Origin: Escherichia coli
GTDB taxonomy: Bacteria; Pseudomonadota; Gammaproteobacteria; Enterobacterales; Enterobacteriaceae
DNA length: 64,000 bases
Reading direction: 5' to 3' (one strand)
NCBI RefSeq assembly: GCF_003334385.1
Contig: NZ_QOWN01000016.1
A program made the position numbers and the translations under genes. Under the pieces are notes generated by a model. That model was not told the origin of the DNA and did not search any database. It saw only the letters and a list, made by a program, of their open reading frames with translations. Below are positions 73-63,082 of the stretch, piece by piece. Each line of letters opens with the position of its first letter. Position 1 is the stretch's first letter.

Positions 73-84
73 CAAATTTAGCGT

Positions 85-160: not shown

Positions 161-197
161 CTTTTTAGGTTAAAGTTCGGCAGATTAGAAAAGAATT

Positions 198-317
198 TGT
201 CTGGCGGCAGTAGCGCGGTGGTCCCACCTGACCCCATGCCGAACTCAGAAGTGAAACGCCGTAGCGCCGATGGTAGTGTGGGGTCTCCCCATGCGAGAGT
301 AGGGAACTGCCAGGCAT
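198..317 (+). rRNA. rrfF: 5S rRNA, complete 120-nt copy
   Basis: TGTCTGGCGGCAGTAGCGCGGTGGTCCCACCTGACCCCATGCC...GGGAACTGCCAGGCAT; second 5S gene after thrV. Confidence 0.92.
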
Positions 318-322
318 CAAAT

Positions 323-366
323 AAAACGAAAGGCTCAGTCGGAAGACTGGGCCTTTCGTTTTATCT
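323..366 (+). terminator. rrn operon terminator T1 (hairpin plus U-tract)
   Basis: AAACGAAAGGCTCAGTCGGAAGACTGGGCCTTTCGTTTTAT immediately after the 5S gene. Confidence 0.75.
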
Positions 367-496
367 GTTGTTTGTCGGTGAACGCTCTCCTGAGTAGGAC
401 AAATCCGCCGGGAGCGGATTTGAACGTTGCGAAGCAACGGCCCGGAGGGTGGCGGGCAGGACGCCCGCCATAAACTGCCAGACATCAAATCAAGCG

Positions 497-530
497 AAAG
501 GCCATCCGAAAGGATGGCCTTTTTGCTTTT
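497..530 (+). terminator. rrn operon terminator T2-like hairpin plus U-tract
   Basis: AAAGGCCATCC-GAAA-GGATGGCCTTTTTGCTTTT; the stretch between T1 and T2 contains a degenerate 5S 3'-end-like segment (AAACTGCCAGACATCAAAT). Confidence 0.6.
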
Positions 531-545
531 CGAACTAACATTCAA

Positions 546-1304
546 TTAATGGATTACCTGCGATAAAAATGCCCTCGTACGCTCTGATTTAGGATGCGCA
601 AAAAATTCATCAGGTGCAGCTTGCTCCACTATTTCCCCACGATCCATAAAAATTACCCGGTCAGCGACGGTTCGTGCAAACCCCATCTCATGTGTTACAC
701 ACAACATTGTCATACCCGACTGCGCCAGCCCAATCATCGTATCCAGCACCTCTTTCACCATCTCAGGATCGAGCGCCGACGTTGGCTCATCAAACAACAT
801 AATTTTCGGCTTCATACACAGCGAACGCGCAATGGCAACGCGTTGCTGCTGACCACCTGAAATCTGTCCGGGAAACTTATGCGCATGTTCGGCAATTCTC
901 ACCCGCTCTAGGTAATGCACCGCCAGATCTTCAGCCTCTTTCTTAGGCATCTTGCGTACCCAAATCGGTGCCAGGGTACAGTTCTGTAAAACGGTCAGAT
1001 GAGGGAAGAGATTGAAATGCTGAAAGACCATTCCCACTTCCTGCCTGACGCGCTCAATATTGCGGATATCTTCATTAAGTTCGATGCCATCTACCACGAT
1101 CCGTCCCTGTTGATGTTCTTCCAGATGATTAATACAACGAATGGTTGTCGATTTACCGGAACCTGAAGGGCCACACAGAACGATCCGTTCTCCCGGTTGC
1201 ACGGTTAAATTTATATTTTTCAAAACATGGAATTGTCCATACCATTTATTGACGTTTTCCAGCGTAATCATCGCGTTAGCAGGTTGCAGTAAAATTTGGC
1301 TCAT
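546..1304 (-). CDS. yhdZ: amino-acid ABC transporter ATP-binding protein
   Basis: 252 aa; Walker [13 protein letters not shown] signature ISGGQQQR; last gene of yhdWXYZ. Confidence 0.9.
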
Positions 1305-1311
1305 AGTGTCC

Positions 1312-2415
1312 TCAATGCGGTATACGCCCGGTGTTAAAACGTTTTTCCAGATACTGGCTATAGCGCGACATGCTGAAACAGAAGATCCAGTAGATCAGCG
1401 CGGCGAAAACATACCCTTCCGTCGACATACCCAACCAGGCGGGATCAACGGTTGCCTGCTGAACGCTACTGAAAAGATCGAACAACCCGATAATGATCAC
1501 CAGGCTGGTATCTTTGAAGAGTGCGATGATGGTATTTACCAGCCCAGGAATTACCAGCTTCAACGCCTGTGGCAGAATAACCAGCCCCTGAGTTTTCCAG
1601 TAACCCAACGCCAGCGACTCTGCCGCTTCATATTGCCCTTTAGGCAGCGCCTGTAATCCACCTCGCACGACTTCCGCAACATATGCTGACTGAAACAGGA
1701 TCACGCCAACCAGCGCGCGGATCAATTTGTCGATACTGGTGCCTTCTGCCATAAACAACGGCAGCATGACCGAAGACATAAACAGAACGGTAATCAGCGG
1801 CACGCCGCGCCAGAATTCGATAAAAATGACCGATAAGATACGCACAATCGGCATATGGGAGCGGCGACCTAACGCCAGTAAGATCCCCCACGGTAGCGCC
1901 CCCGCAATCCCAACTGATGCAATAATTAAAGTTAGCGTCAGCCCGCCCCATTGCCGGGTTTCAACCCGCTCAAGAGCAAAAAAACCGCCATACATCAGCC
2001 ACCAGACAATCAGTGGGTAAATCACCGCCCAGGCCGCAATATAGCGACCGCGATGCGGGAGTATTTTCCAGAACATTGGTGCGATCGACACAAGCCCAAT
2101 CAGTAATGCGAGGTTAATTCGCCAGCGTTGGTCGTGTGGGTAAAGCCCATACATAAACTGACCAAATCGTTCGTGGATGAAGACCCAACAGGCACCGGCT
2201 TTTGTGCAGTCGGCACGCGGTGAGCCAACCCAGTTAGCCTGCAAAAATGCCCAGTTCAGCAACGGTGGGATCAGTTCCCACATCAACCATATGCAGCCAA
2301 TAGTCAGCAGGCTATTGCTCCAGCTGGAGAACAGATTTTTTCGCACCCACACCATCGCGCGGCTTGAGTTATGGCTCGCCGGGCGCGGGGGATGAGACAG
2401 CAATACTTTTGTCAT
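1312..2415 (-). CDS. yhdY: amino-acid ABC transporter permease
   Basis: Polytopic membrane protein; second ATG chosen (AAGGAG 5 nt upstream) giving 367 aa; ORF track starts one codon earlier. Confidence 0.85.
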
Positions 2416-2424
2416 CATGACTCC

Positions 2425-3606
2425 TTAGCGTTCAACGATCGCGATGCGGCGGTTATAGATATTCATCAGCAGCGAGATAGTCAGGCTGATAATCAGATAG
2501 ACCGACATGGTCATGGCTATCGTCTCGATGGCTTGCCCCGTCTGATTCAGCACGGTGCCGGCAAACAGCGAAACCATATCGGGATAGCCAATAGCGGCGG
2601 CAAGAGAGGAGTTTTTGACGATGTTGAGATACTGGCTGGTTAACGGTGGAATAATCACCCGCAATGCCTGGGGAATAATGACCTGGCGTAGCGTAACCGG
2701 GTTGGGTAATCCCAGTGACCGAGCCGCTTCATGTTGACCATAAGGCACTGCCTGGATCCCAGCGCGGATAATCTCGGCGATAAATGCAGATGTATAAACC
2801 GAAAGTGCCAGCGTTAAGGCTGCCAGTTCAGGAATTAAAACCATCCCGCCGCGGAAGTTAAAGCCTCGTAGGGCTGGGACATCCCAGTGTAGTGCTGCGC
2901 CAAAAAGCCATTGCGCCAGTAAAGGCAAACCAATGATCAACACTGCGGCGATCGGCCAGGTGCGGCGCAGTTGTCCGGTCTTTATCTGGTATGTTTTATT
3001 AAAGCGGAATAGCCCAACAGAAAGGACTATAGCCATAACAACAGCCAGGATAAACGCAATAAATCCGTCTCCCAGCTGCGGTGACGGAATATAAAGCCCA
3101 CGATTGCTCAAAAAGGCCAGATCAAACGCGCTCACAGCCTGGCGTGGTCCGGGCAAATTGCGCAACACGGCAAAGTACCAGAAGAAGATTTGCAGCAGCG
3201 GGGGAATATTACGGAAGATCTCAATATAAATTGTGGAAAGCTTTCGTAGCAGCCAGTTATCCGAAAGTCTCGCCAGACCGATAAAGAAGCCCAAAACAGA
3301 AGCGAACACAATACACAATGCAGAAACCAGTAGCGTATTGAGTAAGCCGACAATAAAAACGCGTCCGTAGGTGTCGCCCTGCTGGTAATCGATCAAATGC
3401 TGGACAATACCGAAGCCAGCGCCGCGATCCAGAAAGGCAAAACCTGAAGTAATGCCACGATTATTGAGATTCGTTACAGTGTTGTGAAATAACCAACCAA
3501 CAATGCCGACAACAGCAACAACGGCAAGGATCTGGAATAACCAGGCGCGAACCGTAGGGTTGGCAAAAGAGAGTGAGCCTTTAACGGTTGAGCGGCGATG
3601 AGACAT
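2425..3606 (-). CDS. yhdX: amino-acid ABC transporter permease
   Basis: Membrane permease; ATG at 3606 with GAGG upstream gives 393 aa; ORF track extends 6 codons further. Confidence 0.85.
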   Translation of the reverse strand: MSHRRSTVKGSLSFANPTVRAWLFQILAVVAVVGIVGWLFHNTVTNLNNRGITSGFAFLDRGAGFGIVQHLIDYQQGDTYGRVFIVGLLNTLLVSALCIVFASVLGFFIGLARLSDNWLLRKLSTIYIEIFRNIPPLLQIFFWYFAVLRNLPGPRQAVSAFDLAFLSNRGLYIPSPQLGDGFIAFILAVVMAIVLSVGLFRFNKTYQIKTGQLRRTWPIAAVLIIGLPLLAQWLFGAALHWDVPALRGFNFRGGMVLIPELAALTLALSVYTSAFIAEIIRAGIQAVPYGQHEAARSLGLPNPVTLRQVIIPQALRVIIPPLTSQYLNIVKNSSLAAAIGYPDMVSLFAGTVLNQTGQAIETIAMTMSVYLIISLTISLLMNIYNRRIAIVER

Positions 3607-3673
3607 AGAAACCTCGGAAAGCATAACGCTGAAGAGAGCGCCGCCGTAGCGACGCTCGTTACCTCACACCGAC

Positions 3674-4699
3674 TTAACGCACGGGCGGTGCGTACTGAAT
3701 ACCGCCGTTATTCCAGAGATTATTTTGCCCACGTTTAATTTTCAGCGGGCTTTCTGAACCTACGTTACGCTCAAAAATTTCCGAGTAGTTACCCACCTGT
3801 TTGATGATGTTATAGGCCCATTTATTATCCAGCTTCAGATCCTTGCCGTAATCGCCTTCTTTACCCAGCAGATGTGCCATATCAGGCGTTGCTGGATTAG
3901 CCGCTTTTTCATCGACGTTCTGGGAATTGATGCCCATCTCTTCAGCATTCAGCATGGCGAAAAGCGTCCAGCGTACAATCGAGAACCATTCATCATCGCC
4001 ACGACGAACTACCGGACCAAGCGGTTCTTTTGAGATAACTTCCGGTAAGACAATCCATTCAGCTGGGTTGCTTAATTTGATGCGCAGGGCATACAGTTGT
4101 GATTGATCCGAGGCCAGCGTATCGCAGCGACCAGATTCCAGTGCCTTCGCTGATTCGTCAGAGCGATCGAAAGTCACCGGTGTGTACTTCATATTGTTTG
4201 CCTTGAAGTAGTCGGCGACGTTGAGTTCGGTATCAGTACCCGCCTGAATACAGACGGTAGCGCCATCCAGTTCTTTCGCGCTTTTTAGCCCCGCTTTATC
4301 GTGCGTCAGGAAGCCAATGCCGTCGTAATAAGTGACGCCGGTAAATGCCATTCCCATCCCGGCATCGCGAGATGAAGTCCAGGTCGTATTACGGGAGAGC
4401 AAATCCACCTCCCCTGACTGTAAAGCGGTGAAGCGTTCTTTTGCAGTGAGCGGGGTATATTTCACTTTCGTGTCGTCACCAAATACAGCAGCGGCAACAC
4501 CACGACAAATATCAACATCAATACCTGAAAACTTACCGTCAGCATCGGCATAAGAGAACCCAGGTAATCCATCACTGATCCCGCATTGCACAAAACCTTT
4601 TTTCTGAACGGCATCAAGCGTCGCGCCAGCATGCGCCTGATTTGCAACGGCAAGCAGCACGCTGGCGGCAGCCAGTGTGGCTATCATCATCTTTTTCAT
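3674..4699 (-). CDS. yhdW: periplasmic amino-acid-binding protein of the ABC system
   Basis: 341 aa, N-terminal signal peptide MKKMMIATLAAASVLLAVANQAHA, solute-binding protein family 3 features. Confidence 0.88.
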   Translation of the reverse strand: MKKMMIATLAAASVLLAVANQAHAGATLDAVQKKGFVQCGISDGLPGFSYADADGKFSGIDVDICRGVAAAVFGDDTKVKYTPLTAKERFTALQSGEVDLLSRNTTWTSSRDAGMGMAFTGVTYYDGIGFLTHDKAGLKSAKELDGATVCIQAGTDTELNVADYFKANNMKYTPVTFDRSDESAKALESGRCDTLASDQSQLYALRIKLSNPAEWIVLPEVISKEPLGPVVRRGDDEWFSIVRWTLFAMLNAEEMGINSQNVDEKAANPATPDMAHLLGKEGDYGKDLKLDNKWAYNIIKQVGNYSEIFERNVGSESPLKIKRGQNNLWNNGGIQYAPPVR

Positions 4700-5129
4700 A
4701 ATGCTTCCTGTGAGGCGAAAATTATCGTTATAGGACGTTTGGGAAACGTCTTTTACCTGTCTGTGGCCATCCTCTTATAAGCAAAAGTAGTGCCAGCTTT
4801 TGCGCACGATTTCGCGTCGCAATAAGCTGAGTGTAGACAGGAAATAATAAAAACAGCGCTCCGCAATGGTGCGAAAATGAAACATGCGCCACATTTTGGC
4901 GCAAAATATTTACGCGTGTTTTACTAAGCAGAATAATGATTGTTAGCGTGAGTATATTTCTGGTGGGAAGTGTGAAAATTAAATTGATGCGTTATTTCGA
5001 AAGCAGCGAAATAACGCGATGTAACATGCTAAATCAGCAGGGAATTACCCAGCAGAATATAGCAATATTTTATCTTATGGAGAGATTCTGTATCGTTAAA
5101 AAGAGCGCGGAACTCCGCGCCCTGTTCAG

Positions 5130-5603: not shown

Positions 5604-8600
5604 TTATCCTTTAAAGCAACGGCGGATCACCACAAAGAACACCGGTACGAAGAAGATTGCCAGCAACGTTGCAGAGACCATTCCTCCCATTACCCCGATA
5701 CCCACAGCGTTCTGCGCGCCACTGCCGGCACCGTTACTGATAGCTAGCGGTAATACGCCGAGAATAAAGGCGAGAGAGGTCATCAGGATAGGACGCAGAC
5801 GCATACGTACTGCCATCAGTGTCGCTTCAACAACACCTTTACCCTCTTTCTCCATGAGATCTTTAGCGAACTCAACGATCAAAATAGCGTTTTTGGCCGA
5901 CAAGCCAATTGTCGTTAGCAAGCCCACCATAAAGTAGACGTCATTTTTTTGATTAAAGAGTGTCGCCGCCAGCAGCACGCCGACAATCCCTAACGGCACT
6001 ACCAACATAACCGAGACAGGAATTGACCAGCTTTCATAGAGTGCAGCAAGGCACAGGAAAACAACCACAAAGGAAATTGCTACCAGAGCGGGAGCCTGGT
6101 TTCCCGATAAGCGTTCCTGATACGACATACCCGTCCAGTCATAACCAATGCCCGCAGGTAATTTTGACGCAAGGTTTTCCATCAACGCCATGGCATCGCC
6201 GGAACTGGTTCCTGGCGCGGCTTCCCCCTGAATCTCCATTGACGGCAGACCGTTGTAGCGTTCCAGTCGCGGAGAGCCATACACCCAATGTGAAGTGGTA
6301 AAGGCCGAGAATGGCACCATTTCGCCGTTGGCGCTGCGGACATAAAGTTTATCGACATCTTCTGGCAGCATACGGAATTTGGCATCCGCCTGAACATACA
6401 ACTTTTTCACGCGACCACGGTCGATGAAGTCGTTAACGTAAGTCCCACCCAGCGCCGTTGAAATGGTCTGATTGATGTCAGAAAGTGAAACACCTAATGC
6501 CTGCGCCTTTTCCTGGTCAACTTCCAGTTTAAACTGCGCGGTGTCTTCCAGGCCATTAGGGCGCACGCTGACTAAGCTGGCAGGATGTTGCGCCGCCATA
6601 CCAAGCAACTGGTTACGGGCCTGGGTTAGGGCATCGTGACCCAGCCCAGCCTGATCAATTAACTCAAAGTCGAAACCCGTTGCCGTGCCCAGTTCAACAA
6701 TGGCTGGCATATTGAATGGAATGACAAAACCGTCGCGGATCTTGCCCAATTCCATTTTGGCACGATGGATTACCGCTTCCGCACTGTTTTCGTCACCATT
6801 ACGCTCTTCCCACGGTTTCAGACTGACGAAGGCCATACCGGCGTTTTGTGCCTGGCCGCTGAAGCTAAAGCCGTTAACCGTAAAGACACTTTCAACGTTC
6901 GCTTTCTCGTTCTTCAGATAGTAATCCGTAACTTGATCCAACACTTTTTGCGTCCGCTCTTGCGTCGCGCCAGCGGGTAACTGAATCATGGTCAGAAAGA
7001 CACCCTGATCCTCTTCAGGTAAGAAGGAAGACGGAAGACGTAAAAACAACACCACCATTCCTGCAACAATCAGCGCATAGATCAGTAAATATCGTCCTGT
7101 GGATCCGAGGATTTTGCCGACGCTGTTGGTGTAGTGGTTAACGCTATGATCGAAGGTGGTATTAAACCAACCGAAGAAACCGCCCTTATTTTCGTGATGC
7201 TCAGCAGAGACGGGTTTAAGCAGCGTTGCACATAACGCAGGGGTAAGAATCAATGCCACCAGAACAGAAAGCGCCATTGCCGAAACGATGGTGATAGAGA
7301 ACTGGCGATAAATTGCCCCAGTAGAACCGCCGAAGAATGCCATCGGAATAAATACCGCTGACAGCACCATCGCGATACCCACCAGTGCGCCCTGAATTTG
7401 CGACATCGATTTTTCCGTCGCTTCTTTTGGCGGGAGCTTATCCTCCATCATCACGCGCTTGACGTTCTCCACCACCACTATCGCATCATCGACGAGCAGC
7501 CCGATGGCAAGCACCATCCCGAACATCGTTAGTGTGTTGATGGAGTAACCAAAAGCGGCGAGGATGGCAAACGTCCCTAACAACACCACGGGTACCGCAA
7601 TGGTGGGGATCAGCGTTGCTCGCATATTCTGCAAGAACAGATACATCACCAGGAACACCAGCATAATGGCTTCGAACAGCGTTTTTACCACTTCGTGAAT
7701 AGAAAGCTGGACGAATGGCGTGGTGTCATAAGGGTAGAGAACCTTCATTCCCTGCGGGAAGAATGGCTGTAATTCCGCCAGTTTTGCCTTAATGGCTTTC
7801 GCGGTATCGAGAGCATTCGCGCCGGTTGCCAGCTTAATCCCCAGGCCCGCCGCCGGTTTTCCGTTGATACGAGCGATAACGTTATAGTTTTCACCGCCAA
7901 GTTCAACCCGTGCGACATCTTTCAGGCGTACCACCGAGCCGTCACTGTTTACGCGCAGGGTCACTTTGCCGAATTCTTCCGGATTTTTAAACCGCGTCTG
8001 AGCAATAATCGAGGCGTTCAATTGTTGCCCTGGTAACGCTGGCGTTCCGCCCAACTGTCCGGCAGCGATCTGATCGTTCTGTACCTTCAACTGGTTAATC
8101 ACATCAACCGGTGTCAGTTTATATTTGTTTAGCAGATCGGCATCCAGCCAGATACGCATCGCATACTGTGCGCCGAAAAGCTGTACGTCACCGACGCCAT
8201 TCAGACGGCTAAGCGTATCTTTAACGTTAGAGGCCACATAGTCCGAGATATCGTCCTGTGTGGTGCCTGGGTTATCAGAGACAAAGCCCGCCACCATCAA
8301 ATAGCTGCTACTGGACTTTTCAACACTGATCCCCTGCTGCTGAACCTCCTGCGGCAGCAACGGCGTGGCGAGCTGGAGTTTGTTCTGCACCTGCACTTGC
8401 GCGATATCAGGATCGGTCCCGGACTGGAAGGTAAGGGTAATTGTCACGCTACCGGCGGAATCGCTGGTGGAGGACATATACATCAGGTTATCGATACCGT
8501 TCATATTCTGTTCGATAACCTGCGTCACCGTATCCTGCACGGTCTGCGCATCAGCGCCCGGATAGTTTGCTGAAACAGAAACCGCAGGCGGTGCAATTGT

Positions 8601-8708
8601 TGGATACTGAGCGACGGGCAATTGTAGGATCGCCAGTGCGCCCGCCATCATCAGAATAATGGCCAGCACCCATGCAAATATCGGTCGTCGAATAAAAAAG
8701 TTTGCCAT
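5604..8708 (-). CDS. acrF: RND multidrug efflux pump, inner-membrane transporter
   Basis: 1034 aa, 12-TM RND architecture, AcrB paralogue; follows acrE with a 12-bp gap. Confidence 0.93.
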
Positions 8709-8719
8709 GTCAGATTACC

Positions 8720-9877
8720 TTACTTCGATGCAGTATCTGCGGGGGTATCGGTAGTGGCTTTAACCTGCTCTCCCGGACGCGCTTTTTGCAGGCCGCTGAC
8801 AATGACTTGATCGCCAGATTTCAGTCCTTCACTAATCAACCATTTATCGCCAATCGCCTGACTGGCAACGACAGGGCGCGCTTCAACCTGACTTTTATCG
8901 TTAACAATCAGCACGGTTGCATCACCACGCGGTGTGCGGCTAACGCCTTGTTGCGGGATAAGAATGGCGTCAGGTTGGACGCCTTCATCAATCCGTGCAC
9001 GCACAAACATACCCGGCAAAAGCGTATGTTGCGGGTTAGGGAAGACAGCACGTAGGGTTATGGAGCCGGTGCTTTCATCAACGGTCACATCGGAGAATTG
9101 CAGCGTACCTTTCAGGGGATAGGTTTGACCGTTTTCCATGACCAACTCTACGTTGCTGGTGGCGTTTTCCTTATGCAAATTTCCTTGCTCTACGGATTGC
9201 TTCAGCCTCATAAAATCGTTGCTGGATTGGGTCACATCAACGTAGATAGGATCGAGCTGCTGGACAGTCGCCAGTTCAGTCGTTTGCCCATTAGTGACAA
9301 GAGCGCCTTCGGTCACAGTCGATTTGCCGATACGTCCGCTAATTGGCGCAGTGACTTTGGTATAAGCAAGATTGATGCGAGCGCTTTCGACTGTGGCTTT
9401 TGCGGCAATCACGGCGGCATCGGCCTGACGAGCATCAGCAATGGCCTGGTCGTACTCCTGCTGGCTGATGTATTTCGTACCCACGAGCGGAACGTAACGT
9501 TTTACCGTCAAATGCGCGATGGCGGCGGCGGCTTCACTTTTCGCCAGTTCGCCTTTCGCGCTGTCATAATTTGCCTGATAGGTCGCGGGATCGATCTGGT
9601 ACAGGGACTGGCCTGCTTGCACATCGCTGCCTTCAGTGAAATTGCGATTCAGTACGATCCCGCTAACCTGTGGGCGAACTTCGGCTATACGATAAGCATT
9701 GGTGCGGCCTGGTAATTCAGTCTTAACTTCTAACGGGGCCGTTTTTACAATATGAACGGTAACCTGCGGTTCACCGACGTGAGCTTTCTCTTCTCCCTTA
9801 TCGTTACAACCGGCGATTAAAGCCGCGGAGATCAGAATAAAGGAGGGCAGGAGGAAAAACCTGGCATGTTTCGTCAT
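8720..9877 (-). CDS. acrE: RND efflux membrane-fusion lipoprotein
   Basis: 385 aa, lipobox LIAGC, HlyD/AcrA-like. Confidence 0.92.
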   Translation of the reverse strand: MTKHARFFLLPSFILISAALIAGCNDKGEEKAHVGEPQVTVHIVKTAPLEVKTELPGRTNAYRIAEVRPQVSGIVLNRNFTEGSDVQAGQSLYQIDPATYQANYDSAKGELAKSEAAAAIAHLTVKRYVPLVGTKYISQQEYDQAIADARQADAAVIAAKATVESARINLAYTKVTAPISGRIGKSTVTEGALVTNGQTTELATVQQLDPIYVDVTQSSNDFMRLKQSVEQGNLHKENATSNVELVMENGQTYPLKGTLQFSDVTVDESTGSITLRAVFPNPQHTLLPGMFVRARIDEGVQPDAILIPQQGVSRTPRGDATVLIVNDKSQVEARPVVASQAIGDKWLISEGLKSGDQVIVSGLQKARPGEQVKATTDTPADTASK

Positions 9878-10275
9878 TACTATTCCTCAAAAAACCAAAA
9901 GCGCGTTATTTACCCAAAAAGGCAACGCGTTAACTCGCAGAAAGAAAAATACAGTTCGCTATCCTACAAATTATCATTCGTCGATGTAAGGAATAGTTAT
10001 GAATACAGGCATCTCAAGGCACATAAACACAAAAAAAGATTAATATTCTACTGTTTTATTTTGACGCGGGTTGAAAGAGGCAGAATTAAAACCTCGTAAA
10101 TTGAAATATATATTGATGTAGTGAATGTATCTTAGGTAAATAATATATATTATTTATTTAACGATTTATAGCAACTCAATATTAGCCTCTCGTATAAATA
10201 CACATTAGGTGATAGATTAACCTTCGCTATTTTCTCACTCTGTGTCGAATATATTTATTTCCTGAATAATTAATC

Positions 10276-10938
10276 ATGGCAAAAAGAACCAAAGCCGAAG
10301 CTCTGAAGACCCGGCAAGAACTGATTGAAACTGCCATCGCCCAGTTTGCGCAGCATGGCGTAAGCAAGACGACGCTCAACGACATTGCCGACGCCGCTAA
10401 CGTTACGCGTGGCGCTATCTACTGGCACTTCGAAAACAAGACTCAACTGTTTAATGAGATGTGGTTGCAACAGCCTTCATTGCGGGAGTTAATCCAGGAA
10501 CACTTGACGGCTGGATTAGAGCATGACCCGTTTCAACAATTGCGTGAAAAATTGATTGTCGGCTTGCAATATATTGCCAAAATTCCCCGCCAGCAGGCGT
10601 TGCTGAAAATCTTATATCACAAATGTGAATTTAATGATGAGATGCTGGCCGAGGGAGTGATACGCGAAAAGATGGGCTTTAATCCGCAGACTCTCCGCGA
10701 AGTATTGCAGGCGTGTCAGCAACAAGGTTGTGTAGCAAATAACCTCGATTTAGATGTTGTGATGATTATTATTGATGGTGCCTTCAGCGGAATTGTTCAA
10801 AACTGGTTAATGAATATGGCGGGTTATGATCTTTATAAACAAGCCCCCGCTCTGGTCGATAACGTATTAAGAATGTTCATGCCAGATGAAAACATAACGA
10901 AATTAATTCATCAAACGAATGAATTAAGTGTCATGTAA
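10276..10938 (+). CDS. acrS: TetR-family repressor of acrEF (AcrS/EnvR)
   Basis: 220 aa, N-terminal TetR HTH (FAQHGVSKTTLNDIADAANVTRGAIYWHF); divergent from acrE across an AT-rich ~400-bp region. Confidence 0.9.
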   Translation: MAKRTKAEALKTRQELIETAIAQFAQHGVSKTTLNDIADAANVTRGAIYWHFENKTQLFNEMWLQQPSLRELIQEHLTAGLEHDPFQQLREKLIVGLQYIAKIPRQQALLKILYHKCEFNDEMLAEGVIREKMGFNPQTLREVLQACQQQGCVANNLDLDVVMIIIDGAFSGIVQNWLMNMAGYDLYKQAPALVDNVLRMFMPDENITKLIHQTNELSVM

Positions 10939-50892: not shown

Positions 50893-52383
50893 ATGAGTAC
50901 TACAACCCAGAATATCCCGTGGTATCGCCATCTCAACCGTGCACAATGGCGCGCATTTTCCGCTGCCTGGTTGGGATATCTGCTTGACGGTTTTGATTTC
51001 GTTTTAATCGCCCTGGTACTCACCGAAGTACAAGGTGAATTCGGGCTGACGACGGTGCAGGCGGCAAGTCTGATCTCTGCAGCCTTTATCTCTCGCTGGT
51101 TCGGCGGCCTGATGCTCGGCGCTATGGGTGACCGCTACGGGCGTCGTCTGGCAATGGTCACCAGCATCGTTCTCTTCTCGGCCGGGACGCTGGCCTGCGG
51201 CTTTGCGCCAGGCTACATCACCATGTTTATCGCTCGTCTGGTCATCGGCATGGGGATGGCGGGTGAATACGGTTCCAGCGCCACCTATGTCATTGAAAGC
51301 TGGCCAAAACATCTGCGTAACAAAGCCAGTGGTTTTTTGATTTCAGGCTTCTCTGTGGGGGCCGTCGTTGCCGCTCAGGTCTATAGCCTGGTGGTTCCGG
51401 TCTGGGGCTGGCGTGCGCTGTTCTTTATCGGCATTTTGCCAATCATCTTTGCTCTCTGGCTGCGTAAAAACATCCCGGAAGCGGAAGACTGGAAAGAGAA
51501 ACACGCAGGTAAAGCACCAGTACGCACAATGGTGGATATTCTCTACCGTGGTGAACATCGCATTGCCAATATCGTAATGACACTGGCGGCGGCTACTGCG
51601 CTGTGGTTCTGCTTCGCCGGTAACCTGCAAAATGCCGCGATCGTCGCTGTTCTTGGGCTGTTATGCGCCGCAATCTTTATCAGCTTTATGGTGCAGAGTA
51701 CAGGCAAACGCTGGCCAACGGGCGTAATGCTGATGGTGGTCGTGTTGTTTGCTTTCCTCTACTCATGGCCGATTCAGGCGCTGCTGCCAACGTATCTGAA
51801 AACCGATCTGGCTTATAACCCGCATACTGTAGCCAATGTGCTGTTCTTTAGTGGCTTTGGCGCGGCGGTGGGATGCTGCGTAGGTGGCTTCCTCGGTGAC
51901 TGGCTGGGAACCCGCAAAGCGTACGTTTGTAGCCTGCTGGCCTCGCAGCTGCTGATTATTCCGGTATTTGCGATTGGCGGCGCAAACGTCTGGGTGCTCG
52001 GTCTGTTACTGTTCTTCCAGCAAATGCTTGGACAAGGGATCGCCGGGATCTTACCAAAACTGATTGGCGGTTATTTCGATACCGACCAGCGTGCAGCGGG
52101 CCTGGGCTTTACCTACAACGTTGGCGCATTGGGCGGTGCACTGGCCCCAATCATCGGCGCGTTGATCGCTCAACGTCTGGATCTGGGTACTGCGCTGGCA
52201 TCGCTCTCGTTCAGTCTGACGTTCGTGGTGATCCTGCTGATTGGGCTGGATATGCCTTCTCGCGTTCAGCGTTGGTTGCGCCCGGAAGCGTTGCGTACTC
52301 ATGACGCTATCGACGGTAAACCATTCAGCGGTGCCGTGCCGTTTGGCAGCGCCAAAAACGATTTAGTCAAAACCAAAAGTTAA
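50893..52383 (+). CDS. nanT: sialic acid MFS transporter
   Basis: 496 aa from [15 protein letters not shown]; MFS with central insertion. Confidence 0.93.
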
Positions 52384-52430
52384 TCCTGTTGCCCGGTCTA
52401 TGTACCGGGCCTTTCGCTAAGGGAAGATGT

Positions 52431-53116
52431 ATGTCGTTACTTGCACAACTGGATCAAAAAATCGCTGCTAACGGTGGCCTGATTGTCTCCTGCCAGCCGG
52501 TTCCGGACAGCCCGCTCGATAAACCCGAAATCGTCGCCGCCATGGCATTAGCGGCAGAACAGGCGGGCGCGGTTGCCATTCGCATTGAAGGTGTGGCAAA
52601 TCTGCAAGCCACGCGTGCGGTGGTGAGCGTGCCGATTATTGGAATTGTGAAACGCGATCTGGAGGATTCTCCGGTACGCATCACGGCCTATATTGAAGAT
52701 GTTGATGCGCTGGCGCAGGCGGGCGCGGACATTATCGCCATTGACGGCACCGACCGCCCGCGTCCGGTGCCTGTTGAAACGCTGCTGGCACGTATTCACC
52801 ATCACGGTTTACTGGCGATGACCGACTGCTCAACGCCGGAAGACGGCCTGGCATGCCAAAAGCTGGGAGCCGAAATTATTGGCACTACGCTTTCTGGCTA
52901 TACCACGCCTGAAACGCCAGAAGAGCCGGATCTGGCGCTGGTGAAAACGTTGAGCGACGCCGGATGTCGGGTGATTGCCGAAGGGCGTTACAACACGCCT
53001 GCTCAGGCGGCGGATGCGATGCGCCACGGCGCGTGGGCGGTGACGGTCGGTTCTGCAATCACGCGTCTTGAGCACATTTGTCAGTGGTACAACACAGCGA
53101 TGAAAAAGGCGGTGCT

Positions 53117-53120
<4 letters not shown>
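52431..53120 (+). CDS. nanE: N-acetylmannosamine-6-phosphate 2-epimerase
   Basis: 229 aa from [23 protein letters not shown]. Confidence 0.93.
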
Positions 53121-54453
<1,333 letters not shown>

Positions 54454-54472
54454 AACTTAGTTCGTTTTAAAG

Positions 54473-54497
54473 ATTCTGCAGACACTGTCTGCAGAAT
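54473..54497. repeat. perfect palindrome ATTCTGCAGAC-ACT-GTCTGCAGAAT between convergent nanQ and yhcG stops
   Basis: 11-bp perfect arms around core CAGAC-N3-GTCTG; same family as three copies inside yhcG and one after gltD. Confidence 0.85.
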
Positions 54498-54512
54498 TCG
54501 AAACCGCTGAAA

Positions 54513-55640
54513 TTAACGGCGTCTATAGCCTTCCTCTAGCACCGCCTGTGTTCGAACGAGTTCATCTGCGAGTCGTTTCTCATCAGGTAGTTGCATCTTA
54601 TATTCGCTTGCCAGAACGGTGTTAGGCAAACCTGCCAGAGCATAATGCGCTTCTCCGGCTCCTTTCTCTGCACAGAGAACCAGACCGATGGGCGGATTTT
54701 CATCCGGTAGCGTCCAGTGCTCTTTGGCGTAGTTGAGATACATATTCATCTGTCCGGCATCGCTATAGCTGAATTTGCCCACTTTTAGATCGACGATTAG
54801 CAGGCAGCGTAAACGGCGGTGGAAAAACAGCAGATCGACACGAAACCAGTTGTCATCAATGCGTAACCTTCGCTGCCGACCAACAAAGGCAAAATCATCC
54901 CCAAGTTCCAGCATGAAATCCATCAGGTGGTTGATCAGCGCCTCCTCAAAATCGGATTCTGAATATTCATCTTTCAATTCCAGAAATTCGAGCACAAAGG
55001 GATCGCGTATCGCCTGTTGCGGAAGAATATGCGTCTCGGCAGGAGCGTGTTGTTGCAGCATGGCTGATTTGTCATGTGACAGTAGTGTCCGCTCATAAAA
55101 CTGGGTCGCAATTTGCCGCTCTAGCTGGCGAACAGACCAGCCACAGCGGAGCGTCTCTTTTTCATAAAAGCTGCGGGCGTCAGCGTTTTTAACGGAAAGT
55201 AAACGGACGTAGGTGGACCTGGGCAAGGGGAAAGATTTGGCAGACAGCGTCTGCCAAATCTTTGCCGATGGGAATTCTGCAGACGGTGTCTGCGGAATTC
55301 CCAATGGTGTTAATTCGCCAGACATTGTCTGGCGAATTTCAACATGTTGAAAAAAGAGGTAAAAAAGCCTCATTTGGCGTAAGTTTTTTGCAGAGAACCC
55401 ACGCTTATACCTTAGACATAAATCCTTTGATAGTCGCTTGATTAGCTGCGCACCATACGCAGCCCTGGCCTCGCCACCTTGTTCAAATTCGACAATTCGT
55501 CGGCCAATTTCCTGGTACGTCGCGGTCATTAACGCGTTAACGCTACGTACCGTTTCCGTCCGGGCGCTATCGACCAGATGAATAATACCGTCGTGGATTT
55601 GCTGGTAGCCTGCTGTGGTTCCTTCTGAGAGCGATTCCAT
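54513..55640 (-). CDS. yhcG: DUF1016 / PD-(D/E)XK nuclease-like protein
   Basis: 375 aa; C-terminal region carries a D...D-L-K arrangement (FRVDLLFF...LLIVDLKVGKF) compatible with a restriction-endonuclease fold; linker has three in-frame palindromic DNA units. Confidence 0.85.
   Translation of the reverse strand: MESLSEGTTAGYQQIHDGIIHLVDSARTETVRSVNALMTATYQEIGRRIVEFEQGGEARAAYGAQLIKRLSKDLCLRYKRGFSAKNLRQMRLFYLFFQHVEIRQTMSGELTPLGIPQTPSAEFPSAKIWQTLSAKSFPLPRSTYVRLLSVKNADARSFYEKETLRCGWSVRQLERQIATQFYERTLLSHDKSAMLQQHAPAETHILPQQAIRDPFVLEFLELKDEYSESDFEEALINHLMDFMLELGDDFAFVGRQRRLRIDDNWFRVDLLFFHRRLRCLLIVDLKVGKFSYSDAGQMNMYLNYAKEHWTLPDENPPIGLVLCAEKGAGEAHYALAGLPNTVLASEYKMQLPDEKRLADELVRTQAVLEEGYRRR
55231..55338. 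repeat. three tandem palindromes (CAGAC-N3-GTCTG cores) embedded in-frame in yhcG
   Basis: 55231-55263 AAAGATTTGGCAGAC-AGC-GTCTGCCAAATCTTT (15-bp perfect arms); 55270-55302 GGGAATTCTGCAGAC-GGT-GTCTGCGGAATTCCC (1 mismatch); 55312-55338 AATTCGCCAGAC-ATT-GTCTGGCGAATT (12-bp perfect arms); encode EIRQTMSGE / IPQTPSAEF / KIWQTLSAK. Confidence 0.85.
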
Positions 55641-55824
55641 TATCTGTCCCTTTATATGGAGCTAAGTTGAATAATGGAATGAGCTATACTCTGGGGGGTG
55701 AGCACTGAACAATTAAGAACAGCGTATTACATTTACTTTCCCCAAGATATGCGAAGAGCTTTCCTGAAACATTAACCGATCGTATAAAACGAATGCCTGA
55801 TAGTACTCCTGTCCGGCATTGTTA

Positions 55825-56541
55825 TCACAAGTAGACTACGCTTATCACAGCTTTCCCATCAAGTTCGATTTTTTCTGAACCGCCTAAATCATTCGCGATA
55901 GATGCGCTCACCTGAAGCGGTATAATGGCGTTCGTTACAGGAGTTGGGGTTGTTTCACCTGGTTTTACAAAGGTGTAATAATAGCTTTGATCGACTGCAA
56001 GCGGATAAGCGGTGAGCGTTTGCCATGCTCTTTTTTGCCCTGTTATGACGGCATCTGCACCTGCTATTGATACAGCTAACGTCTGGCTACCATTGCTGGC
56101 ACTAATGTTGTTGCTATCAATTAACACGGCATAACTACCGATATTTTTATTATCTTTTGTTTTCCCTAAGCCGAATAAGCGCGTTGTCTGGCTAATATAA
56201 CCTCCGCCATTTAAGGTATATTTTACACCACTCTGACCCCCACTATCTTTTCCGGTGGTCATACTATCCATTCGTGTATCACGAGCGGTAATCGCAATGC
56301 TGGTAGCGGATTCGCAAGTTATAGTCATATTAATATTACGTGTTCCAATCTGTGTGTAGTGCTGCGTTGAAAGTCTATTGACTGAATGACTACCGAAGTT
56401 AACAACTCCGCCGTTGCTTAGTATTGGAGTACAAGCTGCAGCTTCCAGAGTCACCTTAACGTCAATTGATACTCTATCAGCGGCTTGCGCTGACATGGCA
56501 AAAAAGGCACTTCCGGCAATCAGTAATTTTACATTGTTCAT
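55825..56541 (-). CDS. yhcF: DUF1120 fimbrial-like periplasmic protein
   Basis: 238 aa, signal peptide; clear paralogue of GltF (ACTPILSNGGVVNFGSH vs ACTPVVTGGGIVDYGKH; C-terminal EKIELDGKAVISVVYL vs ETIKLDGNVTISVQYL). Confidence 0.85.
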   Translation of the reverse strand: MNNVKLLIAGSAFFAMSAQAADRVSIDVKVTLEAAACTPILSNGGVVNFGSHSVNRLSTQHYTQIGTRNINMTITCESATSIAITARDTRMDSMTTGKDSGGQSGVKYTLNGGGYISQTTRLFGLGKTKDNKNIGSYAVLIDSNNISASNGSQTLAVSIAGADAVITGQKRAWQTLTAYPLAVDQSYYYTFVKPGETTPTPVTNAIIPLQVSASIANDLGGSEKIELDGKAVISVVYL

Positions 56542-57083
56542 TTTGCCTCCACCAGGACCGTCAGATTGCCTGTAATATCTGTCATGTCGGTTAGTTCCCC
56601 TTCATCCTTAAAAGCTGGAGCCATTGTCAGTGTGAGGCTAACGCTTTTACCGCTATCAATTACCACTTCTTGACCATTTTGCATAAACACCAGCCAATTA
56701 TTGGGGGAAGTACTAATTGATGCTGTTCCTGTGCTGCCCGGATTGTCATTTTTGCCACTGGCTAACGCCAGGTCGAGATTGTTACTACCTGAAAATGCAT
56801 CGCTGGCGATCAGATTTAATGAACCATTCGGGCCAAATCCAAATCCGTTGTTGGAAATATTAGCGGTATTCAACTGAACACGAATATGAGCGTCCTGATC
56901 GCATTGCATTACCAGCGTGATTGTTCTGTCTGCTAATTGTGTTGTTTTACCCCGGTCAACTTGGCGCATGGCAGCACTTCGTTTGCCATAGTCGATATTT
57001 TGTATGCTACTGGAGATATTACACTCTGCCTGAGCGGCCATGGCGAAGTTCAGCAGCAGGCATCCTGTTATTATCCGTTTCAT
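56538..57083 (-). CDS. yhcE: fimbrial-like protein, intact
   Basis: about 181 aa from ATG at 57083 (MKRIITGCLLLNFAMAAQA signal peptide); ATGA overlaps with yhcD stop and yhcF start; uninterrupted here. Confidence 0.75.
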   Translation of the reverse strand: MKRIITGCLLLNFAMAAQAECNISSSIQNIDYGKRSAAMRQVDRGKTTQLADRTITLVMQCDQDAHIRVQLNTANISNNGFGFGPNGSLNLIASDAFSGSNNLDLALASGKNDNPGSTGTASISTSPNNWLVFMQNGQEVVIDSGKSVSLTLTMAPAFKDEGELTDMTDITGNLTVLVEAK

Positions 57084-59461
57084 TGGCACTCTCCTGTTGC
57101 TGTCTCATAGAACACATCTTTTGGTGCATCTTCTGGGAATGTAAGGTGAATACGGCATGATTGCTGCTCATCTTTTATATCTAGCACCATGTCCGGTTTG
57201 ATGTTATTGAGGAATACAACACCGTCATCCACTGATGTTGTCAGATAGTTGCCTTCACTATCTTCAATCGCAACGCCTCTGGGCAGTTTTTTGCCGTCGG
57301 AAAGTGTGATATTGAGTAATGCACGGCGTTGTGTTATCGCACTGAATCCGACTTTCCCTACTGCACCACGGCCTTGTTTGATCATTTTTGTGCCGTTACC
57401 GATATCGACATTTTTTGGCAAGCTGGCGGTATCGATCTCAACTCCTGATGTTCGCCACGACTGGATTGATGGAATGACGGCATTACCCCGAAAATCTGTC
57501 CATACTGGGCCTGCCTGAGATGTAATTCTGACACCTGCAATATTGTTATCCATTTTTGCGATGGCGAAAGTGTCATTGATAGTCCACGGTGAAAAGGTCA
57601 CTCCCTGATCATGTACGGCAATACCACCTGACATCGTACCGTTGTAAGTACGGCTATCACTGCCGCTTGCTCCTGCGGCAAGGCTGACTTGGGTGTAATG
57701 GAGATTGGAACTGATACTGCCGTTCAAGCTCGTTTCACGTTCGTCGTGATCTCGTTCAGCATTCACATAGTAGGACATCTCATCTGAGACGACTCCCATG
57801 ACACCAGTACCATAGTGGGTTTTATGATCGTCATGGCGAGTATACAGTGTGGCGGTGTTTGATCTGCCAAATGGAATACTGATGTTGACGTAGAACAGAT
57901 CACCATCGTCTTCATTATTTTCTGAAGCACTAAGTTGATGCTGCCAGTTGACGGAAACCGTGGCGTGTTTGAACGCTTTGTTCCAGTTAATATTAAGGTT
58001 GCTTGAGTCATTGTCACCGTCGTAACTATATGTTTTATAGCCACTGATGTTGAAACCACCCAGAATGGAGTTAGACCAGTTTAAACCAAGCGCATAAGTG
58101 CTTTTAGTCGGATCGGTATAATCATCATCAATCGCTTCAGACAGTTCGCGATAATGGCGATCAGATCGAGTGAGGCTGGTTGTTAGCCCAAGTGAAAATG
58201 GGAGATTGTAGTTCGCGTCAAGACGATATTTCTGTCCTTGCAGTGAGTCTTTCGTATCCTGCGATGTACTAATTTGGCTGCTCACTGTTAAATCGGGCAG
58301 GGGAACCAGACTCGACCGGATTGATGCCGCCTGATAATTTTCTGCTACGATAACGCCGCCGTTCATTGCACTCCAGCGTGTCAGATTCCATCCGCTCGAT
58401 GCACTAATTACCCAAGGTGATTCGTCATAGTCATCGTCTACCCGCCCTATCGCGAAGCGATAACCCTGGAAGCTTTCTACATGCTGATTAAACAGGGTGG
58501 AGGGAACAATATAGTTGTGCGAACTACCGTCTGTTTCGACAACGGTGACATTAAGATCACTATTACCATTGCGAACAGGTACATCAGGGATAGTGAATGC
58601 GCCCGCAGGAACCAGAATGGAATGAATTAAAACTCCTTGTTGACGAATCTCGACACGAGCCTGAGAGGTGTTGGCTATACCAGTAACTTGCACACCACTG
58701 CCGCTGGTTTGCAATGCGTTGTCCGGTGCGATTTCGATACCGTAAATACTGGCTCCTTCCAACACGCTATTATTGAGGTTAACTTCACCTGCTCGCATGA
58801 GTGTTTTAAGATCTGTAAAGGTACGTTGAAGGTAGGTTGACGAGTTCTGGTTACTGAATGTGCCATTTGTTTGTGTAAGGAACTGATGGCTGCGTAACAT
58901 CCAGTCATTAATATTAATCCCGCCTTCAAGTGCAGCCTGGGAGTAGTCCGAACTCCCATTAGAAAATTCTGCACGGCTGCTCATCAGAGAGTAGTTTAGC
59001 AGCGCAGCTGTTCCACCAGTTGCTGCGTTTGTGAGATCCAACCCTATGGGAATGATCGCCTGTGGTGAAACGATAATATCTAACGCTTCCTGGTTAGGTA
59101 ATGGTGTGATTGTGGTACCCGGGTAGGACAATATATAGTCGTAACAGCCATTTTTTTCTTCAGAAGGAATTTTTAAACCGGCTTGTTGCAGAAATGCCTG
59201 ATCAAGACAAATGTCGCCATTTTCATCAAAGCGCGTAGCAATGTTGCCTTTTTTTTCGCCATTTACTGATACTATCAGTGAATATTCACCTGGCAAAAAA
59301 CGGGCTGAACGGGAAAAATAATGCGATATATTAGGATCTACACCTAGTGATTTTAATGTTTCCCGATCAAAATCAACAGCGGCAATCTCTATACCATCTG
59401 CATTGGCTGGGGGAGAAAAGGCAAAACCAATGGTGTAGGCCAGTAACGTTTTTTTTAACAT
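57080..59461 (-). CDS. yhcD: fimbrial outer-membrane usher
   Basis: 793 aa from ATG at 59461 (MLKKTLLAYTIGFAF...); usher-sized beta-barrel protein; ORF track opens at an upstream TTG. Confidence 0.88.
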   Translation of the reverse strand: MLKKTLLAYTIGFAFSPPANADGIEIAAVDFDRETLKSLGVDPNISHYFSRSARFLPGEYSLIVSVNGEKKGNIATRFDENGDICLDQAFLQQAGLKIPSEEKNGCYDYILSYPGTTITPLPNQEALDIIVSPQAIIPIGLDLTNAATGGTAALLNYSLMSSRAEFSNGSSDYSQAALEGGININDWMLRSHQFLTQTNGTFSNQNSSTYLQRTFTDLKTLMRAGEVNLNNSVLEGASIYGIEIAPDNALQTSGSGVQVTGIANTSQARVEIRQQGVLIHSILVPAGAFTIPDVPVRNGNSDLNVTVVETDGSSHNYIVPSTLFNQHVESFQGYRFAIGRVDDDYDESPWVISASSGWNLTRWSAMNGGVIVAENYQAASIRSSLVPLPDLTVSSQISTSQDTKDSLQGQKYRLDANYNLPFSLGLTTSLTRSDRHYRELSEAIDDDYTDPTKSTYALGLNWSNSILGGFNISGYKTYSYDGDNDSSNLNINWNKAFKHATVSVNWQHQLSASENNEDDGDLFYVNISIPFGRSNTATLYTRHDDHKTHYGTGVMGVVSDEMSYYVNAERDHDERETSLNGSISSNLHYTQVSLAAGASGSDSRTYNGTMSGGIAVHDQGVTFSPWTINDTFAIAKMDNNIAGVRITSQAGPVWTDFRGNAVIPSIQSWRTSGVEIDTASLPKNVDIGNGTKMIKQGRGAVGKVGFSAITQRRALLNITLSDGKKLPRGVAIEDSEGNYLTTSVDDGVVFLNNIKPDMVLDIKDEQQSCRIHLTFPEDAPKDVFYETATGECQ

Positions 59462-59481
59462 CCTTGTCGCTCCAGGCAAAG

Positions 59482-60156
59482 TTATTTTAAGTCAGTGACA
59501 TATTTATTACCGCGATAACCATATCGGCTGGCTGGGTAAAACTCGACTTTTGTATCCGTAGCGTTTGTTAATGCAGTAGTTGTACTGGTGTGTGGTAGAA
59601 AATAGGTCTTATTTATAGCCCCCGTTTTTCCTGAAGGGAGCGTTTTAAATTGTAAGGTCATACGAACGACATAATTACTGGGGTTGCTAATCTCAATTTG
59701 GTCGCCATTTTTACGCCATTCCAGGAATTTCCAGGTCTCTCGCTCTTCCGGCAGGGAAGCCGGGTGGATCAGTACAGGTAGATCCTGACGAATTGAAACA
59801 GTAACTCTGCTGCTCTTGTCATCTTTTGGTGGAATACCTTCGAACGTTACGCGTTTCAGCTCTTCTGATTGCAGAGGAACAGTCGCCTGAAGTAAAAATC
59901 GAACCTGTTGTACTTGACCGGCTTCAACACGAATAACGGGCTGAGTCGGGATTAAACGAATTGATTTATTGCTTTCAGGCAAATCAACAATGGTGGTGTA
60001 AAGCAATGAAGGATGATCATCTGTATTCTTAATATTAATACTAGCTTCACCACGCTTTTCATCAACCAGCAATACTGATGTTTCAGGAACCATCCCTGTG
60101 GCTAAGGTATTCATTGATGTTGTTATAAATACAGTGAATGTAATGTGTCTGAGCAT
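59482..60156 (-). CDS. yhcA: fimbrial periplasmic chaperone (PapD-like)
   Basis: 224 aa, signal peptide, chaperone-sized; immediately upstream of the usher. Confidence 0.88.
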   Translation of the reverse strand: MLRHITFTVFITTSMNTLATGMVPETSVLLVDEKRGEASINIKNTDDHPSLLYTTIVDLPESNKSIRLIPTQPVIRVEAGQVQQVRFLLQATVPLQSEELKRVTFEGIPPKDDKSSRVTVSIRQDLPVLIHPASLPEERETWKFLEWRKNGDQIEISNPSNYVVRMTLQFKTLPSGKTGAINKTYFLPHTSTTTALTNATDTKVEFYPASRYGYRGNKYVTDLK

Positions 60157-60327
60157 TTAAATTAAAACTCCTGTAATAATGATAAATAACGCAGAAACAT
60201 ATTGTTAATATATGTTATGCACTGTTTGCGATGAGATTGATTAAGACAGACCATGTCATAGGGCATAATCTGTCCGAGTTATAGCTAACTGGTTAATGCG
60301 TAAAAATAAAAACTGTATTACAAGTTC

Positions 60328-61092
60328 TTATAAATACTGAACGCTGATAGTGACGTTACCATCCAGTTTGATCGTTTCATCAGAACCAAGAATAGTATTG
60401 TCATTTACCGCAGCATCAATCAGTAACGGGAAGGTGACCGCTGTAATGGCAACAGGTGTCAGTTCCCCTGTTTTTGCAACAGAATAACCGCGCTCGATTG
60501 CTGAGCAACTTGTCAGCGAGCAGAATGCGCCATTAGATGAGGCTTTCCATGTGGGGGTCGCTGCTGACCAGTGGTCAGTTTGAATCAGGTCGACAGGAAT
60601 TTCACCTGTATCGTCCGCCGCGTGAATCCCACCATTAGACCTGTCAATACCAATGGATGCAGCGCCAATTTTTTGTCCATTAGGCGCAGAACCTAAACCA
60701 AAGGCGTTTTTCGTTCCCTTCATATCTACGAGAGTATCATAAGCTTTTTCAATATAGGATGTGTCGTTTAACGCTACAATGGTCGACTGACGGTTATCCT
60801 TGGAGGTTACAGCAATTAGCGTTGGTGCTGTGCAGGTTATATTTAATGTGCTGTTTTTGCGGCCCAGTTGAACCAGTTTATTACTTTTACCGGTCGGATT
60901 CAGCGCACTGTTATGATGTTTCCCATAGTCAACAATGCCGCCGCCCGTAACAACTGGGGTACATGCACCAGGGGTATACTCGCCGATGATAGTTAATTCT
61001 GTATCAGTTGAATCTGTTGCCATGGCACTGAATGCTGCAACAGAAAGTGCTGCACAAATAGCAGCTGTTGTGAGGTTCTTTTTGAAAAACAT
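60328..61092 (-). CDS. gltF: DUF1120 periplasmic protein GltF
   Basis: 254 aa, signal peptide MFFKKNLTTAAICAALSVAAFSAMA; paralogue of YhcF. Confidence 0.88.
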   Translation of the reverse strand: MFFKKNLTTAAICAALSVAAFSAMATDSTDTELTIIGEYTPGACTPVVTGGGIVDYGKHHNSALNPTGKSNKLVQLGRKNSTLNITCTAPTLIAVTSKDNRQSTIVALNDTSYIEKAYDTLVDMKGTKNAFGLGSAPNGQKIGAASIGIDRSNGGIHAADDTGEIPVDLIQTDHWSAATPTWKASSNGAFCSLTSCSAIERGYSVAKTGELTPVAITAVTFPLLIDAAVNDNTILGSDETIKLDGNVTISVQYL

Positions 61093-61611
61093 ATGAACAT
61101 ATCCTTAATAACAAATTTATTTTTTAAAATAAAAAGCTGAAGCAGTATATATATCTGTTTGTGAATGTAAATAAATAACTCGTTCAGAAATAGCCAACTT
61201 GCTGGGATGTATTTATTTAATGAATTTTATAGTTACGATCATGTGAATAATAAGGTGCTGGTGAGGTGGTTTGTGGTGATAATTATTCATTACATGAATG
61301 TTTGCGCTGAAAAATAGGAAAATATATAGATAATTAAGGATAATATATTGGTTTTTTATATTCATATTTTGTATATTAATATCGAGACAATTTACATGGA
61401 ATGAAAAGACTGAATAGCTTGCAGAATCGGTATTGTCAGAGGTGTTAACAAGTAATTGAGACGGATTGTAAATGAGAAATTGCTTGATGTGCTTCACTCA
61501 TCAGACTTGGTGAACAAAGCACAATTTATTGAAAATTATCCCTATTATAGGAAAGGTCAAACGCTCATGCCGCATTTGCCAGAAAACAACGCGCACTTCG
61601 TCAGTAATTTG

Positions 61612-61636
61612 ATTCGCCAGACACAGTCTGGCGAAT
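61612..61636. repeat. perfect palindrome ATTCGCCAGAC-ACA-GTCTGGCGAAT just 3' of gltD
   Basis: 11-bp perfect arms; arm sequence identical to the yhcG-internal unit at 55312-55338; 16 bp from the gltD stop codon. Confidence 0.85.
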
Positions 61637-61651
61637 TCATTGTTACCTCGC

Positions 61652-63082
<1,431 letters not shown>

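Follow-up and report, generated by a model that had tools for sequence, protein, structure and literature searches.

In the reference genome of Escherichia coli K-12 MG1655 (NC_000913.3), the gene yhcE (b4569) appears as a pseudogene in two pieces, with the annotated feature 'insertion sequence:IS5R' and its insH10 between them, whereas the same gene is uninterrupted in the window described here (the window being the whole stretch of 64,000 nucleotides that was analysed). This difference raises the question of whether the intact gene represents the original state of the locus or one restored after loss of the element, and of what its product might do within the fimbrial cluster that surrounds it. 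The features of the locus are collected in Table 1.

Table 1. Features of the yhc locus in the window (strand in the third column; "." where none applies)
Feature	Position	Strand	Description	Basis
yhcF	55825-56541	-	DUF1120 subunit-like, 238 aa; last cluster gene; mature N-terminus donor-strand-like (RVSIDVKVTL); G81S relative to K-12	annotation, sequence
yhcE	56538-57083	-	intact, 181 aa	ORF calling, homology to RefSeq, AF2 model, pilin-fold matches
YhcE signal peptide (predicted)	residues 1-19, nt 57027-57083	-		AxA pattern
IS5 target site, unoccupied	56713-56716	.	CTAA; single copy in the window, two in K-12	K-12 alignment
yhcD	57080-59461	-	fimbrial usher, 793 aa, full length; P668S relative to K-12	NCBIfam NF011832
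yhcA	59482-60156	-	periplasmic fimbrial chaperone (PapD-like), 224 aa, identical to K-12	NCBIfam NF007392
gltF	60328-61092	-	DUF1120 fimbrial-subunit-like, 254 aa; first cluster gene; mature N-terminus donor-strand-like (ELTIIGEY)	annotation, sequence
gltF-yhcADEF islet	55770-61649	.	about 5.9 kb, approximate extent	GC profile and genomes without the cluster

An uninterrupted yhcE gene

The frame containing yhcE has no internal stops on the minus strand between 57089 and 56538, and would encode 183 aa from a GTG start or 181 aa from the ATG at 57083. The start is ambiguous, the frame being open already at the GTG, 6 nt before the annotated ATG (57083-57089). The 181-aa product begins with MKRIITGCLLLNFAMAAQA, followed by ECN, and has a predicted signal peptide of typical form; an AxA motif that is conserved across the family predicts the cleavage site, and the mature protein would start at E20-C21. 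RefSeq records of other strains contain an identical gene of 546 nt, named 'YhcE family protein' (WP_000821351.1). A BLAST comparison of the K-12 IS5 copy with the entire 64-kb window returned chance matches only (16 nt at most), and the ORF list of the window holds no transposase ORF between yhcD and yhcF. An earlier note on this DNA, made from the letters alone, had described a continuous yhcE frame of about 181 aa with a signal peptide and no transposase or IS terminal repeats between yhcD and yhcF; the continuous frame and the absence of an insertion are both borne out.

The start of yhcE overlaps the stop of yhcD in the tetranucleotide ATGA (57080-57083), and its stop overlaps the start of yhcF in a second ATGA (56538-56541). 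Because of these overlaps on both sides, the sequence suggests that translation of yhcE is coupled to that of yhcD and yhcF. The start of yhcD is itself ambiguous, since its frame is open from a TTG at 59479, 18 nt upstream of the annotated ATG (59461) and directly after the yhcA stop. A scan of the cluster for promoters and terminators gave nothing above chance, with 10 promoter-like sites found against 13.5 expected from shuffled sequence.

The IS5 insertion in K-12 and the empty site in the window

The earlier note had stated that yhcE of K-12 MG1655 is a pseudogene split by IS5, and the annotation of NC_000913.3 agrees: fragment 1 (3365185-3365555) and fragment 2 (3366755-3366929) are separated by IS5R (3365556-3366750, 1195 bp). 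The K-12 locus aligns with the window in two blocks, positions 1-4717 of the locus with window 52000-56716 and positions 5913-10900 with window 56713-61700; the blocks therefore delimit a 1195-bp insert and a 4-bp overlap, CTAA. At the K-12 junctions, GTACTAA is followed by GGAAGGTGCGAA on one side, and TTCGCACCTTCC is followed by CTAATTG on the other, which are the terminal inverted repeats of IS5 with a duplicated CTAA on either side. Joined together, the two K-12 fragments reproduce the window gene at all 546 of 546 nt, each piece being a 100% match. Both copies are the same gene at the same locus with the same neighbours (gltF, yhcA, yhcD, yhcF, and yhcG); the window differs in having no 1195-bp IS5 and one CTAA instead of two, and in carrying the YhcD P668S and YhcF G81S substitutions.

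In K-12, IS5R interrupts codon 124, so the product there is limited to at most 123 native residues plus 36 encoded by the IS. The last 58 residues, which are lost, correspond in the AlphaFold2 model to three predicted beta-strands, the C-terminal strand included. In this reading, K-12 acquired IS5 at the CTAA in codon 124 and thereby lost these residues and the C-terminal beta-strands, and the element in addition cuts off yhcF from the upstream genes to which it is probably coupled in translation.

The target site by itself fits both a gene that never received the element and one from which it was precisely removed: the observed state, one CTAA and a gene equal to the two K-12 fragments put together, is also what would be left by precise removal of IS5 from a K-12-like ancestor or in an engineered IS-free K-12 derivative. 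The flanking sequence argues against such a restoration. Over 9.7 kb, the window differs from K-12 by four SNPs, three of them non-synonymous (YhcD P668S at 57460, YhcF G81S at 56301, and YhcG H103R at 55333, with a synonymous change in gltF at 60448), and over 25 kb it matches wild isolates from cattle, humans, rivers, and sediment (e.g., N61) at about 100% identity. The window as an IS-cured K-12 was considered and rejected on the four SNPs and the match of about 100% to wild isolates. Other strains with an intact yhcE (e.g., WCHEC005237) share the K-12 alleles of the YhcD and YhcF proteins.

Distribution of yhcE states

Among 5,426 complete E. coli genomes, 1,142 contain yhcE, all at 95% identity or more and 1,139 at 99% or more. 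Probed with 100 bp of sequence that has the target site at its centre, 789 of the 1,141 genomes with this site show no interruption, and of about 1,141 carriers 783 to 789 have an intact gene. Complete matches to a 120-bp probe spanning the boundary of yhcE and IS5 in K-12 occur in 351 genomes, and among the matches listed all 60 junction-bearing records are laboratory K-12 derivatives (among them MG1655, W3110-type strains, C600, DH5alpha, DH1, J53, and HMS174). Outside the species, YhcE orthologues of 181 aa occur in E. ruysiae and E. albertii, with 59-78% identity. Given the population counts and these orthologues, intact yhcE is both the ancestral form and that of the majority, and IS5 entered the gene in the K-12 lineage. 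Other elements have entered it independently in strains outside K-12: the canine strain 1283 has an IS1 in yhcE, 2017.10.01CC has an IS3-family element there, and in strain D53-1 an IS1B affects yhcE or its neighbourhood (H1/H156, H13, and H204 being the non-K-12 loci compared).

These distributions weigh further against a restored K-12 gene, as 789 diverse genomes have the empty site, orthologues of the same length occur in related Escherichia species, and the 60 listed records with the IS5 junction are all laboratory lines of K-12; taken with the SNPs and the identity to cattle, human, and river isolates, precise excision or engineering is a highly improbable origin for the window. An assembly artefact, in which an IS copy collapsed out of the contig, would draw on the fact that short-read mis-assembly is common for repeats such as IS5. 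Collapse would not, however, produce a perfect single target site together with a reading frame, and the same uninterrupted sequence is found in hundreds of complete (closed) genomes, so that the chance of such an artefact is close to nil. The window thus almost certainly holds a never-interrupted, ancestral yhcE in a natural E. coli strain other than K-12, a reading adopted because of the identity of about 100% to wild isolates and the four SNPs relative to K-12. The proposal in the earlier note that the DNA comes from a strain or state without the insertion is upheld by the single CTAA, the four SNPs, and the match to wild isolates; alignment to MG1655 and other E. coli, which that note had put forward as a check, finds the 1195-bp IS5 in K-12 and, among the 60 junction-bearing records listed, in laboratory K-12 derivatives only.

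The gltF-yhcADEF cluster and its islet

On the evidence of its sequence, the locus is a beta-class chaperone-usher fimbrial cluster, in which yhcE is the fourth gene of gltF-yhcA-yhcD-yhcE-yhcF, lying between yhcD and yhcF inside the order gltD-gltF-yhcADEF-yhcG-nanQ. YhcD matches the usher family NF011832 with 1271.5 bits (cut-off 723) over residues 1-793, and YhcA matches the chaperone family NF007392 with 319.7 bits (cut-off 183). GltF and YhcF, which share 31% identity, are DUF1120 proteins by RefSeq annotation, and their matches to NCBIfam PRK15302 and PRK15303 fall under the cut-offs. All five ORFs of the cluster (gltF, yhcA, yhcD, yhcE, and yhcF) are full-length in the window. The description of the fimbrial operon as potentially functional, also made in the earlier note, accordingly stands at the level of ORFs and at that level only, as it is the intactness of all five genes that supports it.

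The cluster forms an AT-rich islet, with a GC content of 35-48% compared with 53-59% in the flanks, and is present in about 21% and absent in about 79% of the 5,426 complete genomes. The source lineage belongs to this cluster-carrying minority of E. coli, reported as phylogroup A. In genomes without the islet, gltD adjoins yhcG, or adjoins nanQ directly where yhcG is also missing; this layout was taken from H205 and H228, H40 being left out with its IS1-rearranged locus. In strain 2013C_3964, about 53 bp separate gltD and yhcG where the islet would be. The neighbouring yhcG (window 54513-55640, PDDEXK/DUF1016) is variable: it is absent in some strains (e.g., Rb-23, where nanQ adjoins gltD) and elsewhere is cut to a 'DUF1016 N-terminal' fragment beside a transposase, and in WCHEC005237 such a fragment lies beside IS629/IS3-family remnants and a group II intron.

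Previous reports of the yhc locus

An intact yhcE without IS5 is already known, since it is documented by the reference annotation and by at least two papers. The classification of E. coli fimbriae by Wurpel et al. 2013 includes the Yhc usher, and its authors reported no intact Yhc cluster among 36 genomes (PMC3559732). Intact beta-class yhc loci, 'lacking the IS', were then described in colonisation-factor-negative ETEC of phylogroup A by Del Canto et al. 2017, who counted 353 identical database entries for YhcE and called its function unclear; in the only published test, deletion of an intact yhc locus from an ETEC strain left adherence to Caco-2 cells unchanged (PMC5216030). Krol et al. 2019 reported that E. 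coli C is without the K-12 yhcE IS5 insertion (PMC6805351), and that insertion is one of 11 catalogued IS5 copies in BW25113 (PMC11677980). The loci of the ETEC strains and of E. coli C share with the window a five-gene organisation without the IS (PMC5216030, PMC6805351), and yhcF of the window is the 717-bp form of K-12 length, in contrast to the shorter yhcF2 and yhcF3 reported in the ETEC and E. coli C work.

The YhcE family and its predicted fold

Profile searches against curated families place YhcE below every threshold. Against Pfam, the matches are sub-threshold only (DUF1120 PF06551 with an i-Evalue of 0.11, Fimbrial PF00419, and SCPU); among 40 aligned YhcE relatives, none matches Pfam DUF1120 at E<=0.001 and 12 do at E<=0.1. 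Against NCBIfam NF011829/PRK15301 the score is 54 bits where the cut-off is 226, and searches of PDB sequences with two profiles returned nothing meaningful (the best matches being PLD4 and BurrH, E > 0.1). BLASTP between YhcE and YhcF is marginal (E 0.013), and profile-profile comparison with hhalign aligns YhcE from Cys21 to about residue 70, a stretch holding both cysteines, with the same region of YhcF/GltF (E 1e-5, 50 columns). Of the 119 cluster representatives that an exhaustive profile search yielded, most measure 175-215 aa, and some reach 375-398 aa and match in two stretches. Both Cys21 and Cys61 are retained without exception among the 96 aligned relatives.

AlphaFold2, run with a 40-sequence alignment, gives a confident all-beta model (pLDDT 91.5), and all six Foldseek matches to this model at E <= 0.001 are chaperone-usher pilins. 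As modelled, the protein has an incomplete Ig-like pilin fold in which the F strand comes last.

A named system close to this cluster is Salmonella Stj (PRK15301-15304), the second beta-fimbria of enterobacteria, which has been classed as such (PMC9238391). The Stj usher falls in the NF011832 subfamily, as does YhcD (1271 bits); the alignment of YhcE to NF011829/PRK15301 runs from end to end, and YhcF can be aligned to both PRK15302 and PRK15303. Because its 54 bits lie far under the equivalog cut-off of 226, YhcE is, as far as the profile comparison goes, a distant homologue of the Stj protein and not the same protein.

The position of the gene relative to the usher gene extends well beyond E. 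coli. In all four distant loci with readable context (the contig of a further homologue, L005, being too short), a YhcE-like gene comes immediately downstream of the usher gene and often overlaps it by 4 bp, and these loci also hold a chaperone gene and DUF1120 genes; in one of the four, the gene in this position encodes a two-domain version. P0047 (locus L007, 7001-8128) and some 15 further representatives, 374-398 aa long, have a tandem two-domain layout with paired cysteines near 30/69 and 203/242, which is reminiscent of two-domain tip adhesins. Compared with the tip subunits of classical chaperone-usher pili (FimH, PapG, LpfD, and CupB6), E. coli YhcE differs in being a single domain of about 160 residues without a separate lectin domain; its two-domain relatives in other bacteria (375-398 aa) occupy the same gene position.

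A possible role at the fibre tip

In donor-strand exchange, the N-terminal extension of each pilin subunit inserts into the previously assembled one, and a subunit without such an extension is the first in and stands at the distal tip. The N-terminus was measured on an HMM alignment, from the hydrophobic core of the signal peptide to the first of the conserved cysteines; the median is 10 residues in the YhcE family, compared with 23-25 residues in five DUF1120 subunits. The additional stretch of about 15 residues in the DUF1120 subunits carries an alternating hydrophobic/polar motif (e.g., RVSIDVKVTL, ELTIIGEY). YhcE has no such donor-strand extension, its mature form starting one residue before Cys21 according to the predicted cleavage, and since polymerising subunits need the extension, this is the pattern of a tip-type and not of a shaft subunit. 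The family includes exceptions, a few relatives having 22-31 residues before the first Cys. Two relatives, P0007 and P0016 (84% and 61% identity to YhcE), have L-A-A-C and L-A-G-C before the conserved cysteine, which resembles a lipobox (signal-peptidase II); in most of the family this cysteine is preceded by E or D, which does not suit a lipobox.

These features are consistent with a model in which YhcE would be a secreted pilin-fold subunit, which YhcA, the chaperone, would hold and hand over to YhcD, the usher. Without the N-terminal donor strand of YhcF and GltF, it would be able to accept a strand and unable to donate one, and for this reason it would be assembled first and would occupy the distal tip of a thin fibre made of DUF1120 subunits. 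The groove of YhcE accepts the YhcF donor strand in silico, in a fusion model that was built without a scrambled-peptide comparison. For this mechanism the balance is about even. Its extension to the whole family, in which the missing tip or initiator subunit in fimbriae of the beta class would be a YhcE-like protein (a pilin without a donor strand, encoded right after the usher, in one- and two-domain forms), is a tentative proposal in which our confidence stays just short of even. To our knowledge, beta-class fimbriae have never been seen assembled.

Alternatively, YhcE may not be a fibre subunit at all, and may instead be a periplasmic accessory or regulatory protein, or the whole cluster may be a silent relic that forms no surface structure. 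Published work describes what YhcE does as unclear and reports a yhc knockout without an adhesion phenotype (PMC5216030), YhcE stays under threshold for every curated fimbrial family, an AT-rich islet is typical of silenced horizontally acquired DNA, and the independent IS insertions in yhcE of other strains suggest weak selection in some lineages. Set against this are the fold matches, which are mostly to chaperone-usher pilin domains, and the place of the gene right after the usher, which is kept in distant relatives. The near invariance of yhcE (99% identity or more) and its intact state in most carriers also count against this alternative, as does, in the model, the fit of the YhcF donor strand into the YhcE groove. 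A role outside the fibre, or a silent cluster, is on this evidence unlikely, and a pilin-like subunit, with the tip as its candidate position, is the preferred reading.

Implications

The explanation that best covers the observations as a whole, and that is very probably correct, combines an ancestral yhcE allele in a natural strain with a mechanism in which YhcE would act as a pilin subunit. The state of yhcE serves as a strain marker: the window is not K-12, and at this locus it is the K-12 reference that has the unusual state. For work on beta-class fimbriae, a strain like this one or E. coli C is preferable to K-12.

The sole research lead to emerge is YhcE as a pilin without a donor strand and a candidate tip subunit. 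As relayed in a passage of Del Canto et al. 2017 (PMC5216030), an earlier view (Nuccio and Baumler 2007) holds that beta-fimbriae are without tip subunits. A tip or initiator role, if true, would contradict this published view as well as the view that YhcE has no predictable function, and would explain how the IS5 insertion in yhcE killed the cluster of K-12, an effect beyond the loss of a minor component.
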